Assembly (NCBI RefSeq): GCF_001677475.2
Contig: NZ_CP015229.1
Reading direction: 5' to 3' (one strand)
Source: Escherichia coli
Lineage (GTDB): Bacteria > Pseudomonadota > Gammaproteobacteria > Enterobacterales > Enterobacteriaceae
Length of the DNA stretch: 64,000 bases
The position numbers and the translations under genes are program-made. The first letter of the stretch is position 1. Every line of letters begins with the position of its first letter. The notes beneath the pieces were generated by a model that saw only the letters and a list, made by a program, of their open reading frames with translations, ran no database searches and had not been told where the DNA came from. Positions 3,709 to 64,000 of this stretch are shown in pieces.

Positions 3709-5136
3709 ATGATGATAAATGTGCAAACTGTGGCAGTGATTGGGAGCGGCACCATGGGGGCAGGCATTGCTGAAGTTGCCGCCAGTCATGGACGTCAGGT
3801 TTTACTGTATGACATTTCTGCTGAAGCGCTGACCCGCGCAATAGACGGAATACACGCGCGGCTGAATTCACGCGTGAAGCGGGGAAAACTGACCGCTGAA
3901 ACCTGTGAACGCACATTGAAACGCCTGATCCCGGTGACCGATATTCACGCGCTGGCAGCAGCGGACCTGGTCATTGAAGCGGCGTCTGAGCGTCTGGACG
4001 TCAAAAAAGCGCTCTTTGCACAGCTGGCGGAAGTTTGCCCGCCACAAACGCTATTGACCACTAACACTTCGTCAATCTCTATAACCGCGATTGCTGCGGA
4101 GGTGAAGAATCCTGAACGTGTTGCGGGGCTGCATTTTTTTAACCCGGCACCGGTGATGAAGTTGGTGGAGGTGGTCAGTGGGCTGGCAACGGCGGCGGAA
4201 GTTGTCGAGCAGCTGTGTGAACTGACATTGAGTTGGGGTAAGCAGCCGGTGCGCTGTCATTCGACTCCTGGATTTATCGTTAACCGTGTAGCGCGTCCTT
4301 ATTATTCCGAGGCCTGGCGGGCACTGGAAGAGCAGGTTGCTGCACCAGAAGTGATTGACGCTGCGCTACGCGATGGCGCTGGTTTCCCGATGGGGCCGCT
4401 GGAATTAACCGATCTGATTGGTCAGGACGTCAATTTTGCTGTCACCTGTTCGGTGTTTAACGCTTTCTGGCAGGAGCGTCGTTTTTTACCTTCGCTGGTG
4501 CAACAGGAACTGGTGATTGGTGGACGGTTGGGCAAAAAAAGTGGGCTTGGCGTGTACGACTGGCGCGCGGAACGTGAGGCAGTTGTTGGCCTGGAAGCGG
4601 TTAGCGACAGTTTTAGCCCAATGAAAGTAGAAAATAAAAGTGACGGTGTCACGGAAATTGACGATGTTTTATTGATTGAGACACAAGGCGAGACGGCACA
4701 GGCGCTGGCAACACGACTGGCGCGCCCGGTGGTAGTGATCGACAAAATGGCGGGCAAGGTGGTGACCATTGCTGCTGCAGCGGTGAACCCGGACTCAGCG
4801 ACCCGCAAGGCCATTTATTACCTGCAACAGCAGGGCAAAACAGTGCTGCAAATTGCAGATTACCCAGGAATGCTGATTTGGCGAACGGTAGCAATGATCA
4901 TCAATGAAGCCCTCGATGCGCTGCAAAAAGGCGTGGCTTCTGAGCAGGATATCGATACCGCCATGCGTCTTGGGGTGAATTATCCATATGGCCCGCTTGC
5001 ATGGGGAGCGCAACTTGGCTGGCAGCGAATATTAAGGCTCCTGGAAAACCTACAACATCACTATGGCGAAGAACGCTATCGCCCATGTTCATTGCTGCGC
5101 CAACGGGCGCTTCTGGAGAGCGGTTATGAGTCATAA
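3709..5136 (+). CDS. paaH: 3-hydroxyadipyl-CoA dehydrogenase (475 aa)
   Basis: Start at ATG 3709 immediately after paaG stop; N-terminal Rossmann motif VIGSGTMGAGIA; track ORF 3628..5136 includes an upstream extension that overlaps paaG. Confidence 0.9.
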   Translation: MMINVQTVAVIGSGTMGAGIAEVAASHGRQVLLYDISAEALTRAIDGIHARLNSRVKRGKLTAETCERTLKRLIPVTDIHALAAADLVIEAASERLDVKKALFAQLAEVCPPQTLLTTNTSSISITAIAAEVKNPERVAGLHFFNPAPVMKLVEVVSGLATAAEVVEQLCELTLSWGKQPVRCHSTPGFIVNRVARPYYSEAWRALEEQVAAPEVIDAALRDGAGFPMGPLELTDLIGQDVNFAVTCSVFNAFWQERRFLPSLVQQELVIGGRLGKKSGLGVYDWRAEREAVVGLEAVSDSFSPMKVENKSDGVTEIDDVLLIETQGETAQALATRLARPVVVIDKMAGKVVTIAAAAVNPDSATRKAIYYLQQQGKTVLQIADYPGMLIWRTVAMIINEALDALQKGVASEQDIDTAMRLGVNYPYGPLAWGAQLGWQRILRLLENLQHHYGEERYRPCSLLRQRALLESGYES

Positions 5137-5548
5137 GGCCTGGCAAAATGCCCATGCAATGTATGAGAACGATGCCTGCGCCAAAGCGCTTGGCATCGAC
5201 ATTATCTCAATGGATGAAGGCTTTGCTGTAGTGACCATGACCGTCACTGCACAAATGCTTAATGGTCATCAAAGTTGCCATGGTGGGCAGCTATTTTCAC
5301 TGGCTGATACTGCCTTTGCCTACGCCTGCAATAGCCAGGGGCTGGCAGCCGTCGCTTCTGGCTGCACGATTGATTTTTTACGTCCAGGCTTTGCCGGAGA
5401 CACCTTAACTGCGACTGCGCAGGTACGTCATCAGGGCAAGCAAACCGGTGTTTACGACATCGAAATTGTTAACCAACAACAAAAAACGGTTGCGCTGTTT
5501 CGCGGTAAATCTCACCGCATCGGCGGCACCATTACAGGAGAAGCCTGA
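5126..5548 (+). CDS. paaI: Hotdog-fold acyl-CoA thioesterase PaaI (140 aa)
   Basis: Start at ATG 5126 (MSHKAWQNAH) within track ORF 5063..5548; overlaps paaH 3' end. Confidence 0.85.
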   Translation: MSHKAWQNAHAMYENDACAKALGIDIISMDEGFAVVTMTVTAQMLNGHQSCHGGQLFSLADTAFAYACNSQGLAAVASGCTIDFLRPGFAGDTLTATAQVRHQGKQTGVYDIEIVNQQQKTVALFRGKSHRIGGTITGEA

Positions 5549-6753
5549 TGCGTGAAGCCTTTATATGTGACGGAATTCGTACACCAATTGGCCGCTACGG
5601 TGGGACATTATCAGGTGTTCGGGCTGACGATCTGGCAGCTATGCCTTTGCGGGAGTTGCTGGTGCGAAACCCGCGTCTCGATGCGGAGTGTATCGATGAT
5701 GTGATCCTTGGCTGTGCTAATCAGGCGGGAGAAGATAACCGTAACGTAGCACGGATGGCGACGTTACTGGCGGGGCTGCCGCAGAGTGTTTCCGGCACAA
5801 CCATTAACCGCTTGTGTGGTTCCGGGCTGGACGCGCTGGGGTTTGCTGCTCGGGCGATTAAAGCGGGCGATGGCGACTTGCTGATCGCCGGTGGTGTGGA
5901 ATCAATGTCACGGGCGCCGTTTGTTATGGGCAAGGCAACCAGTGCATTTTCTCGTCAGGCAGAGATGTTTGATACCACTATTGGCTGGCGATTTGTGAAC
6001 CCGCTCATGGCTCAGCAATTTGGAACTGACAGCATGCCGGAAACGGCAGAGAATGTAGCTGAACTGTTAAAAATCTCGCGAGAAGATCAAGATAGTTTTG
6101 CGCTACGCAGTCAGCAACGTACGGCAAAAGCGCAATCTTCAGGCATTTTAGCTGAAGAGATTGTTCCGGTTGTGTTGAAAAACAAAAAAGGTGTTGTAAC
6201 AGAAATACAACATGACGAGCATCTGCGCCCGGAAACGACGCTGGAACAGTTACGTGGACTAAAAGCACCATTTCGTGCCAATGGAGTGATCACCGCAGGC
6301 AATGCCTCCGGGGTGAATGATGGAGCCGCTGCGTTGATTATTGCCAGTGAACAGATGGCAGCAGCGCAAGGACTGACACCGCGGGCGCGTATCGTAGCCA
6401 TGGCAACCGCCGGGGTGGAACCGCGTCTGATGGGGCTTGGTCCGGTGCCTGCAACTCGCAGGGTGCTGGAACGCGCGGGGCTGAGTATTCACGATATGGA
6501 CGTGATTGAACTGAACGAAGCGTTCGCGGCCCAGGCGTTGGGTGTACTACGCGAATTGGGGCTGCCTGATGATGCCCCACATGTTAACCCCAACGGAGGC
6601 GCTATCGCCTTAGGCCATCCGTTGGGAATGAGTGGTACCCGCCTGGCACTGGCTGCCAGCCATGAGCTGCATCGGCGTAACGGTCGTTACGCATTGTGCA
6701 CCATGTGCATCGGTGTCGGTCAGGGCATCGCCATGATTCTGGAGCGTGTTTGA
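5548..6753 (+). CDS. paaJ: 3-oxoadipyl-CoA / 3-oxo-5,6-dehydrosuberyl-CoA thiolase
   Basis: Track ORF, 401 aa; thiolase signatures ([10 protein letters not shown]..., C-terminal CIGVGQG). Confidence 0.9.
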
Positions 6754-54239: not shown

Positions 54240-54905
54240 ATGCCTGGAACGGGAAAAATGAAACATGTCAGTTTGACTCTGCAGGTTGAGAACGACCTGA
54301 AACATCAGCTTAGTATTGGCGCATTAAAACCTGGCGCACGCCTGATTACTAAAAATCTGGCGGAGCAATTAGGTATGAGTATTACACCTGTGCGTGAAGC
54401 ATTATTACGTCTGGTTTCGGTGAATGCGCTTTCTGTCGCACCAGCGCAAGCATTTACAGTTCCGGAAGTGGGAAAACGTCAATTAGACGAAATCAATCGG
54501 ATCCGCTATGAACTGGAATTAATGGCAGTTACTCTGGCTGTTGAACACCTCACCCCGCAAGACCTGGCGGAACTCCAGGTATTACTCGAGAAATTACAGC
54601 AGGCGCAAGAAAAGGGCGACATGGAACAAATCATTAATGCGAACAGGCTATTTCGCTTAGCGATTTATCATCGCTCAAATATGCCCATCCTGTGTGAGAT
54701 GATTGAGCAACTGTGGGTCAGGATGGGACCTGGTTTACATTATCTTTATGAAGCGATTAATCCAGCGGAATTACGGGAGCGTATAGAAAACTATCATCTA
54801 TTACTCGCCGCGTTAAAAGCAAAAGACAAAGAGGGATGCAGGCATTGTCTTGCTGAAATTATGCAACAAAATATTGCTATTTTATACCAGCAATACAATC
54901 GTTAA
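54240..54905 (+). CDS. mcbR: GntR-family transcriptional regulator McbR (YncC)
   Basis: Start at ATG 54240 (MPGTGKMKHVSL...) inside track ORF 54183..54905; 221 aa. Confidence 0.85.
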   Translation: MPGTGKMKHVSLTLQVENDLKHQLSIGALKPGARLITKNLAEQLGMSITPVREALLRLVSVNALSVAPAQAFTVPEVGKRQLDEINRIRYELELMAVTLAVEHLTPQDLAELQVLLEKLQQAQEKGDMEQIINANRLFRLAIYHRSNMPILCEMIEQLWVRMGPGLHYLYEAINPAELRERIENYHLLLAALKAKDKEGCRHCLAEIMQQNIAILYQQYNR

Positions 54906-58445: not shown

Positions 58446-59945
58446 TTAACTCGCCGTTTCAGGTTTAAACACAATTTCCTGTTTTTCTTCATCTTCCTCG
58501 ACGACTGGCGCAGTGCTGTGAATTTCAGCAACGCGTTTGCGCACACCAAACCAGCCTATAACCAGCAGAATACCGATAATCGGCAGCGCCGCGATGGTAT
58601 AAGTCCCGTTCGGGTAATCGAATGCCATCAGCACCAGGACACTCAGTAAAAACAGTAATGTCAGCCAGGAAGTGAAGGGCGCGCCAGGCAGTTTAAAACT
58701 GACATCCGCTGCTTTGCCTTCTTTAATCGCTTTACGCAGGCGCATCTGGCACACGATGATAAACGCCCATGAAGCGATGATTCCCAGCGACGCGAAGTTC
58801 AACACAATCTCAAATACGCGCGACGGCACCAGATAGTTGAGGAATACGCCGACGACATAAACGACCAGTGTCGCCAGAATCCCGGCATACGGCACATGCT
58901 GACGGCTCATTTTCGCCATAAAACTCGGTGCGGAACCGCCCATCGCCATCGAGCGTAGAATACGTCCGGTGCAGTACAGACCTGAGTTCAGGCTGGAGAG
59001 GGCAGCGGTCAGCACCACAATGTTCATAATGCTGCCGATGTACGGCACACCCAGTTTAGAGAAAAACGTCACGAACGGACTTTGCCCAGCCTGATACGCG
59101 CTCCACGGCAATAACATAACCAGCAACACCACGGAGCCGACGTAAAACAGGCCAATACGCCAAATCACACTGTTAATCGCTTTAGGCACCATGGTCTGCG
59201 GATCTTTACATTCTCCGGCAGCTGTACCCACCATTTCAATGGAGGCAAAAGCAAACACTACGCCCTGAATCAACACCAGAGCAGGAAGCAAACCGTGGGG
59301 GAAGAAGCCGCCATTATCGGTGATTAAATGAAAGCCAGTGGTGTTGCCATCCAGCGGCTGACCACTACCGAGGAACACTGTACCCACGACCAAAAAGGTC
59401 ACAATGGCGAGCACTTTAATAAGCGCAAACCAGAACTCCATCTCCGCAAACCATTTCACACCAATCATATTCATGGTGCCAACGATGGTAAGTGCAGCGA
59501 GCGCAAAGACCCACTGCGGCACGCCGCCAAACGCCCCCCAGTAATGCATATACAGCGCTACAGCGGTGATATCGACAATCCCCGTCATCGCCCAGTTAAT
59601 GAAGTACATCCAGCCTGCAACGTAAGCGGCTTTCTCTCCTAAAAACTCACGGGCATAAGAGACAAAGCTGCCACTGGAAGGGCGATGTAACACCAGCTCA
59701 CCCAATGCACGCAGAATAAAAAACGAAAACAGGCCACATATTAAATAAACCAGTGCCAGCGCAGGACCCGCCATTTGCAGTCGGGCTCCTGCACCTAAAA
59801 ACAAGCCGGTGCCAATCGCGCCGCCAATGGCGATCATCTGCACCTGGCGATTGCCCATCGCTTTGTGATACCCCTCTTCGTGGGCATTAAGCCAGCGGCG
59901 TTTCGCGGCGTGTTGATCTGGAGTGTCGGTGTCGTGTTTACTCAT
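58446..59945 (-). CDS. ansP: L-asparagine permease (APC family)
   Basis: Start at ATG 59945 (MSKHDTDTPDQHAAKRRWLNAHEEGYHKAM) inside track ORF 58446..59996; 499 aa. Confidence 0.9.
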   Translation of the reverse strand: MSKHDTDTPDQHAAKRRWLNAHEEGYHKAMGNRQVQMIAIGGAIGTGLFLGAGARLQMAGPALALVYLICGLFSFFILRALGELVLHRPSSGSFVSYAREFLGEKAAYVAGWMYFINWAMTGIVDITAVALYMHYWGAFGGVPQWVFALAALTIVGTMNMIGVKWFAEMEFWFALIKVLAIVTFLVVGTVFLGSGQPLDGNTTGFHLITDNGGFFPHGLLPALVLIQGVVFAFASIEMVGTAAGECKDPQTMVPKAINSVIWRIGLFYVGSVVLLVMLLPWSAYQAGQSPFVTFFSKLGVPYIGSIMNIVVLTAALSSLNSGLYCTGRILRSMAMGGSAPSFMAKMSRQHVPYAGILATLVVYVVGVFLNYLVPSRVFEIVLNFASLGIIASWAFIIVCQMRLRKAIKEGKAADVSFKLPGAPFTSWLTLLFLLSVLVLMAFDYPNGTYTIAALPIIGILLVIGWFGVRKRVAEIHSTAPVVEEDEEKQEIVFKPETAS

Positions 59946-60472: not shown

Positions 60473-60882
60473 AACATTACTTCAATATAATTAATGTGTA
60501 TATCATTCCCGATATTAATTTATGAAGTGAATTTGATATATTCCGAATTCTTAATTTACATTACTAATGTATGGGGCATAACGTTAAGATTGCTATGTGC
60601 AGATTAACATATCAGGGTGGGGCGGTAGCGTTTACAGATATTAATCAATTGATGAGAATTATGTTAACTGCGTAATCATTTGCATCGATTATTGATATTG
60701 AAGATAGATTAATAAAAATGCTGAGAATTAATGTTAAAAAATCATAACGGGAAACGTTGATAACTTGCTTTGATTTCATTTTCTATGAAGATGATGTCAT
60801 CAATACTGTATAAAGTGGAAATGTTGAACATCAAAGAGCGTTTGTGTTTTATCTGAAAGATATTATTTCCAGGGGGAAGGAT

Positions 60883-61013
60883 ATGTCATTAAGGAGAATG
60901 ACATCTGGTGAATTAACATTGGCCAGATCGATTTTTGAGAATACAATTGATTATAGCAAGGTATGGATCCACAATGAAAAATATTTGCCTGGTCAAGGGG
61001 AAAGAACAGCGAT
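60883..61013 (+). pseudogene. 5' fragment of a host ORF interrupted by the prophage insertion
   Basis: ATG 60883 with GGAAGGA RBS; MSLRRMTSGELTLARSIFENTIDYSKVWIHNEKYLPGQGERTAI then reads straight into the Mu-type end at 61014 (track ORF 60844..61083 is the chimera). Confidence 0.4.
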
Positions 61014-61190
61014 TGTATTGATTCACTTGAAGTACGAAAAAAACCGGGAGGACATTGGATTATTCGGGATTTGGCGGGATTAGATTTAGTGGGGCTTGCA
61101 AGCCTGTAGGACAGATTTTAGCCGTTACATCTTGAAACGCGAAAGATTGTTGGAAACAGCTTTTGATTCATTAAAGACACGAAAAGCAAT
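61014..61190 (+). repeat. Prophage attL with transposase end-binding sites L1, L2 and L3
   Basis: L1 about 61019-61040 (TGATTCACTTGAAGTACGAAAA), L2 about 61128-61147 (CTTGAAACGCGAAAGA), L3 about 61164-61186 (TGATTCATTAAAGACACGAAAAG); terminal 5'-TG. Confidence 0.8.
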
Positions 61191-61352
61191 TACTTCACGC
61201 ATCATTTCAAGTACAGCTTCAAAAATGCTTCAAAAACGGTAACAACCAGGCTTTCGGCAAGTGATGTGTGTCAAAAACAATCATCACTGTTTGGGTATCT
61301 TACATATGTAATTACCTAGAGTGAAGTTTATGTCTTAGCTATTACCTGGTTG

Positions 61353-61877
61353 TTATACAGCTTTCTTTACATCGTTTTCTCTTACAGGGAAATTATGTTC
61401 TTTGCCTTCATACTGAGACAAAATCTCTCTCACTTTTTCAGGTGGTAATGCCTGAAGAGTTTGCAGGGTTTTCTGTTGATCCACAGTAATCCCTAATGCC
61501 TCTAATGCCTTATCTTTACTGACAATTGTAGGCATAAGTCCTTTAATCCCTGCTACACGAATGATCTCCACAGCTGCGGCCTGCTCATCTGGTGTTAAGA
61601 AGCTCATTGCATAAATTAGCCTCTCATCAACTGTATGGGCGATTGATGTATGCACTGGTTTATCAGAAAGTGAGGCTCCTTTAATGGCCCTACGTGTTTC
61701 TTCTGGCAGACTGTTGATGTGATACTCATAAGCGACACCTTTCCCACCGTGACGCTGACGTTTTACCCAATCTTCCGCCACAGCTTTCCTGGTAATGTTA
61801 GTCGCCAACTTTGGTACACCAGGCATCCCTTCCAGCTCTTTCGCATTAAACCATTCTTTGATTTCAAAAGACATCAT
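61353..61877 (-). CDS. c: Mu-type lysogeny repressor (174 aa)
   Basis: Track ORF; C-terminus ...NDVKKAV resembles Mu repressor ...QEVKKAV; N-terminal region resembles the transposase N-terminus; leftward orientation as in Mu. Confidence 0.85.
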   Translation of the reverse strand: MMSFEIKEWFNAKELEGMPGVPKLATNITRKAVAEDWVKRQRHGGKGVAYEYHINSLPEETRRAIKGASLSDKPVHTSIAHTVDERLIYAMSFLTPDEQAAAVEIIRVAGIKGLMPTIVSKDKALEALGITVDQQKTLQTLQALPPEKVREILSQYEGKEHNFPVRENDVKKAV

Positions 61878-62057
61878 TTAAAATCCTAGCGATTTCAATA
61901 GAGACAAAATAAATTCATATAAAAATCATGCCGTTATATGAAATCATGGTAAATACTTTCAAATCTCTATTGATTTGAAAATGATTCCACACTACATTGC
62001 ACGATATGCCGTGAGCTACTTTATAGCGTAGCTCACGGGGGAATCTGAAAGGATTAC
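61878..62057. promoter_or_regulatory. Prophage early control region (operators, divergent promoters, transposition enhancer) by position
   Basis: Intergenic AT-rich region between divergent repressor and ner; individual operators not resolved by eye. Confidence 0.5.
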
Positions 62058-62062
62058 ATGAA

Positions 62063-62284
62063 ATGCATATGAATAAAAGAACTAACCGCCAAGATTGGCA
62101 CAGAGCTGACATCGTTGCAGAGCTACGAAAACGCAATATGTCACTAGCTGAATTGGGAAGATCTAATCATCTTTCGTCTTCAACATTAAAAAATGCTTTG
62201 GATAAGAGATATCCGAAAGCGGAGAAAATCATTGCAGATGCACTGGGAATGACACCGCAAGATATTTGGCCGTCTCGATACTAG
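62063..62284 (+). CDS. ner: Ner-like DNA-binding regulator of early transcription (73 aa)
   Basis: Track ORF; [33 protein letters not shown]... resembles Mu Ner (...DWHRADVIAGLKKRKLSLSALSR...); AAGGA RBS. Confidence 0.85.
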
Positions 62285-62291
62285 GTGCGCT

Positions 62292-64000
62292 ATGAAAGAA
62301 TGGTATACAGCAAAAGAGTTGCTCGGTTTGGCAGGTTTACCAAAGCAAGCCACTAACATTACACGTAAGGCACAAAGAGAAGGCTGGGAGTTCAGGCAGG
62401 TTGCAGGGACTAAAGGTGTATCATTTGAATTCAATATCAAATCATTCCCTGTCGCATTACGTGCTGAAATTCTGTTGCAACAAGGGAGAATTGAAACAAG
62501 CCAGGGGTATTTTGAAATCGCCCGCCCCACGCTGGAAGCCCACGATTACGATCGCGGGGCACTGTGGAGCAAATGGGATAAAGCCAGCGATTCCCAGCGC
62601 AGACTTGCTGAAAAATGGTTGCCTGCAGTTCAGGCCGCAGACGAAATGCTGAACCAGGGGATTTCAACAAAAACGGCTTTTGCGACCGTTGCAGGACATT
62701 ACCAGGTCAGCGCATCCACTTTGCGAGACAAGTATTACCAGGTACAGAAGTTTGCGAAGCCTGACTGGGCGGCTGCACTTGTTGATGGACGTGGTGCATC
62801 TCGTCGCAATGTTCACAAAAGTGAATTTGACGAGGATGCCTGGCAGTTTCTGATTGCAGATTATCTGCGACCGGAAAAACCCGCCTTCCGCAAATGTTAT
62901 GAGCGTCTGGAACTGGCAGCCCGCGAGCATGGCTGGAGTATTCCCTCCCGTGCCACGGCCTTTCGCCGGATTCAGCAACTGGACGAGGCAATGGTTGTTG
63001 CCTGTCGTGAAGGTGAACATGCACTGATGCATCTGATACCGGCACAGCAGCGAACTGTGGAACACCTGGACGCCATGCAGTGGATCAACGGCGACGGTTA
63101 TCTGCATAACGTCTTTGTACGCTGGTTTAACGGTGATGTGATCCGCCCGAAAACATGGTTCTGGCAGGATGTGAAAACCCGAAAAATTCTGGGCTGGCGC
63201 TGCGATGTGAGCGAGAACATTGATTCAATTCGCCTCTCGTTCATGGATGTGGTGACACGCTACGGCATCCCGGAAGATTTTCACATCACCATTGATAACA
63301 CCCGTGGGGCAGCGAATAAATGGCTGACGGGGGGCGCGCCCAATCGTTACCGCTTTAAGGTGAAAGAGGACGATCCAAAGGGACTGTTTTTACTGATGGG
63401 CGCGAAAATGCACTGGACAAGCGTTGTTGCCGGTAAAGGCTGGGGCCAGGCAAAACCTGTTGAACGTGCTTTCGGTGTTGGTGGGCTTGAGGAATACGTT
63501 GATAAGCATCCGGCACTGGCTGGCGCATATACGGGGCCAAATCCGCAGGCAAAACCTGATAACTATGGCGACCGTGCTGTTGATGCAGAGCTGTTTCTGA
63601 AAACCCTTGCTGAAGGTGTGGCGATGTTCAATGCCAGAACAGGCCGTGAAACAGAAATGTGCGGGGGCAAACTCTCGTTTGATGATGTTTTCGAGCGTGA
63701 ATACGCCAGAACGATTGTGCGTAAGCCAACCGAAGAACAAAAACGGATGCTGTTACTGCCTGCCGAAGCGGTGAACGTTTCACGCAAAGGCGAGTTTACG
63801 CTTAAAGTTGGCGGCTCCCTTAAAGGCGCGAAAAACGTTTATTACAACATGGCGTTAATGAATGCAGGCGTGAAAAAAGTTGTGGTCAGGTTTGATCCGC
63901 AGCAGCTACACAGCACAGTTTATTGCTACACCCTGGACGGTCGGTTTATCTGTGAAGCGGAATGTCTGGCACCTGTTGCATTTAATGATGCTGCGGCAGG
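62292..64000 (+). CDS. A: MuA-type DDE transposase, N-terminal ~569 codons (3' end outside window)
   Basis: Not in ORF track because there is no stop before the window end; hand translation [32 protein letters not shown]... with DDE residues at codons 268 (INGDGY), 335 (ITIDNTRG) and 391 (PVERAF). Confidence 0.9.

Follow-up and report, generated by a model that had tools for sequence, protein, structure and literature searches.

The window, as we call the whole analysed stretch of 64,000 nucleotides, contains near its right edge a junction between Escherichia coli host DNA and the left end of a Mu-family prophage (Table 1). On the host side, ansP is followed by a short reading frame that does not stop at the junction and runs on into phage DNA. 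The frame is found in the ORF listing of the window as a plus-strand ORF of 79 aa with a GTG start (60844–61083). An ATG within it at 60883, the codon used by RefSeq as the start in intact alleles, gives a product of 66 aa, MSLRRMTSGELTLARSIFENTIDYSKVWIHNEKYLPGQGERTA-I-VLIHLKYEKNREDIGLFGIWRD, that terminates at TAG (61081–61083). Forty-three complete host codons (60883–61011) precede the hybrid codon at 61012–61014, in which AT is contributed by the host and T by the phage. The preliminary description had traced the frame in this way, from the ATG through 43 host codons and over the junction, and was accurate to the base. It had also credited the ATG with a good ribosome-binding site, GGAAGGA. 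A purine-rich stretch, GGGGGAAGGA, does precede the ATG, and its counterpart in the alignment of intact alleles, GGGGAAAGGA, is conserved; however, GGAAGGA sits just 1 nt from the ATG, and the G-run farther 5′ is therefore the better-spaced Shine-Dalgarno candidate. The length of the ORF by itself is not above chance at 31–39% GC. The stub is counted as part of a real gene on grounds of homology, since its 43 residues match the start of a conserved protein of 176 aa without a single difference.

Table 1. Features at the ansP locus and across the host/phage junction, in window coordinates.
Feature	Position	Strand	Remarks
ansP, L-asparagine permease, core-gene anchor of the locus	58446..59945	-	annotated at the equivalent site in contigs L001, L002 and L034
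Purine-rich Shine-Dalgarno-like stretch GGGGGAAGGA	60872..60881	+	read from the sequence, 5′ of the effector ATG
Chimeric ORF, 66 aa	60883..61083	+	43 host codons, hybrid codon ATT, 22 phage left-end codons, TAG
Putative effector gene, 5′ remnant (43 codons + 2 nt)	60883..61013	+	identical to residues 1–43 of the intact 176-aa allele
Presumed Mu target pentamer GCGAT, left copy	61009..61013	.	final five host bases ahead of the Mu end
D108-like (Muvirus) prophage, left 2,987 bp	61014..64000	+	D108 bases 1–2987; runs off the window end
MuA transposase-binding site	61024..61040	+	0 mismatches to YMYNWRAARYRCGAAAR; D108 annotated site 11–27
Second annotated MuA-binding site	61169..61185	+	1 mismatch to the consensus; D108 annotated site 156–172
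Repressor gene c, 174 aa	61353..61877	-	D108 c 340–864; Pfam HTH_Tnp_Mu_1 on the identical gene of contig L006
ner, 73 aa	62063..62284	+	D108 ner 1050–1271; Pfam HTH_35 on the gene of contig L006
Transposase gene A	62292..64000	+	stop-free to the window end; 569 of 662 codons

Phage terminus and junctions

Comparison of the window with two intact host alleles shows that host homology ends exactly at 61013, which places the junction at 61013/61014. The window matches the intact alleles through 61013 (…GAACAGCGAT) and continues from 61014 with unrelated sequence, TGTATTGATTCAC, where the intact alleles read ...GCGAT(A/G)ACCCCAAAC. In a megablast of 61013–64000 against phage records, phage D108 (Muvirus) was 97.8% identical over 2,987 bp, and D108 base 1 aligned to window 61014. 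Since TGTATTGATTCAC also begins D108-like insertions after unrelated flanks, as in the prophages of RIVM_C019217 (inside yehR) and UMNF18 (near treA), the phage terminus is fixed at 61014. Prophage matches starting from query 304–306, which would shift the junction leftwards, were rejected as chance partial matches of unrelated flanks. The early region has the Mu-like order of c (leftward), ner, A and B.

The exact 66-aa chimera is also recorded in a Logan assembly, that of run ERR10434734, as a 10.8-kb contig (L006) seen in 3 samples. This contig covers the locus from mcbR past ansP to the stub, followed by c, ner, A and B, and it carries the full-length A (662 aa) with MuB behind it; its 499-aa gene call at 3914–5413 corresponds to ansP of the window. 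The contig was assembled from short reads and reaches 6.5 kb into host DNA on one side of the junction and 4.3 kb into phage DNA on the other. Its sequence agrees fully with the window for about 9.4 kb (offset 54532), with the exception of about 25 bases at the contig's own end. The contig and the window may have the same isolate as their source, and would hence not be independent. The first bases of the contig (1–25, equal to window 54533–54557) differ from the window, which is probably an artefact of an assembly-graph end and could alternatively reflect a rearrangement within mcbR in that sample.

Insertion of Mu yields a 5-bp duplication of the target that flanks the element. A second GCGAT is thus presumed at the right junction, which would read as the D108 right end ...GTGCGCCGCTTCA followed by GCGAT-GACCCCAAACGGGG. 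MuA-catalysed transposition can hit nearly any site, with a degenerate 5-bp target 5′-CYSRG (PMC7350765). The central CGA of GCGAT fits the Y-S-R core of that consensus, and the outer C and G are not matched. The latitude in site choice is also apparent among D108-type prophages: an exact look-up of D108 gp56 for the right flank displayed ten prophages among 3,273 blocks, and these ten had ten different right flanks, all unrelated to the present locus, in keeping with near-random insertion.

The window covers about 3 kb of a prophage of about 37 kb, so the right end falls outside it, and the 3′ continuation of the interrupted gene was not found within the window. Searches for the right junction (the D108 right end, 0–12 nt, then CCCCAAACGGGGAA) gave 0 matches each in genome, metagenome and viral contig collections, and the exact left junction likewise gave 0 matches in these collections. 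The products expected from the 3′ fragment (133 aa from M44 and 127 aa from M50) occur in many contigs, none of which has a Mu right end upstream. Likewise, none of the 5,426 complete E. coli genomes carries both halves of the junction together, which again agrees with near-random insertion. Because the right junction, the duplication and the 3′ part of the gene were not found here, a deletion or rearrangement at the far end may have occurred, while we infer that the prophage is complete. Four Logan contigs (L012, L014, L015 and L016, from runs ERR2223757, SRR23198770, SRR17276607 and SRR17276606) all start at the identical base, G/ATGACCCCAAAC, inside the presumed pentamer. They carry the common allele, 99.95–100% identical to contig L002, and may stem from right flanks whose assembly broke off at a Mu end or at some other structural breakpoint here.

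An assembly artefact, in which a Mu end has been chimerically joined to this locus, would also produce such a frame, and it is highly improbable. The join falls to the base on the canonical Mu terminus TG, the pentamer beside it shows the Y-S-R core of the consensus for Mu targets (PMC7350765), and the short-read contig L006 crosses the junction and is identical to the window. These observations stand against the facts that Mu-type ends can repeat within genomes and be mis-joined, that the right junction is missing from the genome, metagenome and viral contig collections, and that the four Logan contigs of other samples, in starting exactly at G/ATGACC, show assemblies breaking at this site.

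The intact gene and its locus

The core genes in window 36000–60900 (tehAB ... mcbR-pqqU-yncE-ansP) are, over 25 kb, no more than 97.3% identical to even the closest of the 5,426 complete genomes of E. coli. This suggests that the host belongs to a divergent Escherichia lineage, somewhat outside the sampled diversity of complete genomes. In the best-matching genome, GF3-3, an extra IS200/IS605 tnpA-insQ insertion of about 1.8 kb lies between ydcL and ydcO, which the window does not have.

The 533 bp of host flank matches 782 complete E. coli genomes. The gene interrupted in the window is found in 230 of the 5,426, and at least 80% of its length is present in 223. In these 223 genomes the gene is intact at the same chromosomal locus, so that the uninterrupted allele sought on the advice of the preliminary description is found. 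For instance, an intact 531-bp CDS (176 aa) occupies the same position in AR_0077, 2014C-3338 and GF3-3. The order of the intact locus is mcbR-pqqU-yncE-ansP, then the putative effector CDS, a lipoprotein CDS, vgrG, a DcrB-family gene and an RHS core gene. The lipoprotein CDS (357 bp, 118 aa) overlaps the 531-bp CDS by ATGA, the two making up a bicistronic, putative effector/immunity pair, and the downstream vgrG encodes the domains Phage_GPD, Phage_base_V and Gp5_trimer_C. The module has 29–36% GC and stands between core genes of about 50% GC, and it is therefore a horizontally acquired accessory island. Scans with promoter and terminator consensus sequences gave matches that were not above shuffled expectation.

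The lipoprotein gene is present in 226 of the 5,426 complete genomes. The identity classes of the two genes are matched: identities of at least 99% are found in 81 genomes for the effector gene and in 80 for the lipoprotein gene, and the lower bands hold 149 and 146, respectively. Between allele classes the lipoprotein gene diverges much more (90–95% identity) than the effector gene (95–99%), a pattern that would fit co-diversifying effector/immunity pairs.

Other forms of the module were also observed. Variants of the effector gene with 5′ deletions occur in other assemblies (contigs L017–L021, around 5990–6001, and L007/L008, around 5922). One deletion takes the RBS and codons 1–49 and leaves a 127-aa ORF, which is listed in 106 collection blocks; another joins ...GGTTGCAG to TTTTGAGAATAC within the gene. 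C-terminally truncated and frameshifted products are present as well (P0012, P0021 and P0094). The notion that 5′-deleted alleles are common in E. coli was dropped, as 223 of the 230 carriers among the complete genomes have the gene near full length. In E. coli IH5 (NZ_CP168949.1, match H97), a partial lipoprotein gene with 53% coverage adjoins a T6SS contractile-sheath gene, a hint that some main T6SS cluster contains a related module.

Protein family and putative immunity partner

The N-terminus encoded by the stub was not recognised in the preliminary description, which advised a search of protein databases. A database search yielded 144 homologues from Enterobacterales, with 45–70% identity, and the full-length ones are mostly stand-alone proteins of about 160–200 aa. 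They reach well past the break at 61013, whereas homology confined to the host fragment had been named as the outcome that would make the ORF fortuitous. In a sequence search against the PDB, the intact 176-aa protein matches 6H56_A over residues 4–138 with an E-value of 1.9e-20. The 6H56 entry is the C-terminal effector domain of Pseudomonas aeruginosa VgrG2b, a zinc metallopeptidase. The predicted fold is in agreement: an AlphaFold2 model of the intact protein, built with a 25-sequence family alignment, has a pLDDT of 91.7 and a pTM of 0.89, and the only significant matches of this model in a Foldseek search of the PDB are 6h56_A and 6h56_B (E 4.5e-9, probability 1.00, TM 0.65, 33% identity). 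In an alignment of 25 sequences, comprising the intact allele and 24 homologues, H82, E83 and H86 of an HExxH motif and E123-Q124-Q125 are invariant.

The family is not reached by the usual domain models. The intact protein has no Pfam-A match in hmmscan even at E<=10, DUF4157 included, and no NCBIfam match, and no precomputed Pfam domain is attached to any of the 120 homologues listed. Members of the family are often filed under DUF4157. In RefSeq the homologues and the intact gene (L001:6404–6934) are named 'type IV secretion protein Rhs', the usual name among the full-length proteins, or 'hypothetical protein'. The former label is a misnomer, and the naming as a whole is a systematic misannotation. 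Judged by sequence and predicted fold, the Escherichia gene is a previously uncharacterised member of the known VgrG2b-type zinc-metallopeptidase effector family, and the stub would encode the N-terminus of such a T6SS effector.

The 118-aa protein encoded downstream starts with MKRFFLFFFLSGC and has a lipoprotein signal with an LSGC lipobox. It matches NCBIfam NF045617, 'putative T6SS immunity periplasmic lipoprotein', with an E-value of 2.3e-7 and 30.9 bits against a curated cutoff of 43, and it has no Pfam match. By analogy with the systems compared below, this lipoprotein is the probable immunity partner of the effector.

Wood et al. 2019 (PMC6899460) defined the VgrG2b family as antibacterial T6SS toxins, zinc metallopeptidases whose site of action is the periplasm. 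Many Enterobacteriaceae encode a putative cargo version followed by a small ORF for a predicted lipoprotein, and periplasmic toxicity, delivery and neutralisation by immunity were reported for VgrG2b/PA0261 and ACIAD0053 (PMC6899460). The Escherichia gene shares with VgrG2b/PA0261 its sequence, predicted fold, HExxH and downstream conserved Glu, and the locus shares the small downstream ORF for an envelope-targeted protein and the vgrG/T6SS linkage. In contrast to VgrG2b, the Escherichia protein is a free-standing 'cargo' of 176 aa and no part of a VgrG spike, it has a lipoprotein as its immunity candidate, it lacks a Pfam DUF4157 match, and the copy in the window keeps only codons 1–43.

A stand-alone enterobacterial member of the family is also known with its partner. 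SARI_02727 of Salmonella enterica subsp. arizonae (SPI-20 T6SS) is a protein of 189 aa whose gene is bicistronic with that of a lipoprotein immunity protein; placed in the periplasm of E. coli the protein is toxic, the SARI_02726 lipoprotein neutralises it, and the pair was validated by competition and periplasmic toxicity assays (PMC12992299, 2026). The likeness of the Escherichia effector to SARI_02727 is drawn from the published description of the latter. SARI_02726 belongs to the NCBIfam immunity lipoprotein family to which the 118-aa protein of E. coli has its weak match below the cutoff. The two systems differ in location: SARI_02727 is part of a main T6SS cluster, and the Escherichia pair sits beside ansP in an orphan vgrG-rhs island. 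Their immunity proteins differ in length, 118 aa in E. coli and 154 aa for SARI_02726, and SARI_02726 is reported with DUF7480, whereas the E. coli protein has no Pfam match. Toxicity and T6SS delivery of the E. coli effector would follow by homology to VgrG2b/PA0261 and SARI_02727/SARI_02726.

Consequences of the insertion

The window copy lacks all the catalytic residues; H82, E83, H86 and E123 lie 3′ of the break. Because HExxH and Glu123 are all downstream of codon 44, the copy is taken as a null allele, a pseudogene fragment whose loss of function we infer from its sequence. The 66-aa fusion peptide is most likely without function, an incidental by-product, because its 22-residue tail is a read-through of the MuA-binding site of attL, across which D108 has no annotated gene.

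A functional chimera, acting for instance as a newly formed small protein or regulator or as a dominant-negative piece of the effector, is very unlikely. It is true that the stub keeps the native promoter and RBS and is probably transcribed and translated, and that its residues 1–43 hold R4, G9, E10, V27, H30 and Q38, which are invariant in the family, and form a strand-helix-strand in the predicted model. The whole catalytic core is nevertheless absent from the fragment, and the phage residues derive from a transposase-binding site in which no gene is annotated. Recurrence of the exact ORF in 3 samples is explained by clonal descent, the contig being identical to the window, and the occurrence of the junction in 0 complete E. 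coli genomes gives no sign of spread or selection. A merely fortuitous frame in AT-rich intergenic DNA abutting the prophage, with no real host gene, can be dismissed. Short ORFs are common in a region of 31–39% GC, promoter-like matches stay at shuffled expectation and the effector has no Pfam or NCBIfam match, yet the 43 residues are the N-terminus of a 176-aa protein conserved in Enterobacterales (144 matches) that has a homologue of solved structure, 6H56, and intact alleles at the same locus in 223 complete genomes.

We regard 60883–61013 as the stub of a stand-alone T6SS zinc-metallopeptidase effector gene, with a D108-like phage of the Mu family inserted in codon 44, and assign this reading a probability of about 0.92. 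The preliminary description had offered two possibilities, a host gene truncated by the insertion or a fusion ORF created by the junction, and both hold. In the proposed course of events, a D108-like phage would have integrated within codon 44 of the effector gene via MuA-mediated transposition. The insertion would part the promoter, the RBS and 43 codons from all that follows: the other codons of the gene, the immunity gene and the cluster of vgrG and rhs. These parts would be expected one prophage length (about 37 kb in D108) rightward, outside the window. The stub would then be read on into phage attL for 22 codons to a chance stop, giving the 66-aa ORF.

The event is a textbook Mu-type insertional knockout, and the effector family has already been described. 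The left terminus, the MuA-binding sites, the c-ner-A-B order, the insertion in a coding sequence and the variable insertion sites are all shared with insertion mutagenesis by Mu and D108 lysogeny. It differs from such lysogens in that the prophage is a natural one, in a wild Escherichia lineage that is somewhat divergent, with about 34 kb of the element outside the window. That the insertion is not neutral, in that Mu lysogeny may turn an armed and immune cell into an unarmed one by severing the effector from the overlapping immunity gene and from vgrG-rhs, is an improbable suggestion. Should the immunity gene lack a promoter of its own, kin with an intact module might even be able to harm the lysogen. 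If true, T6SS-mediated kin discrimination in a natural lineage of Escherichia would be reshaped by a transposable phage. As part of the same improbable suggestion, Mu might prefer the island as a target, AT-rich and probably poorly transcribed as it is.

For annotation, the 66- or 79-aa ORF should be entered as the 5′ part of a T6SS effector gene that has been disrupted; to list it as a novel small protein would be wrong. The intact gene of Escherichia, which is widely mislabelled and invisible to Pfam and NCBIfam, can now be assigned by homology to the VgrG2b-type metallopeptidase effectors. The locus adds one more natural case of Mu-type phages acting as mutators, by which, as far as homology predicts, one interbacterial weapon has been disarmed.
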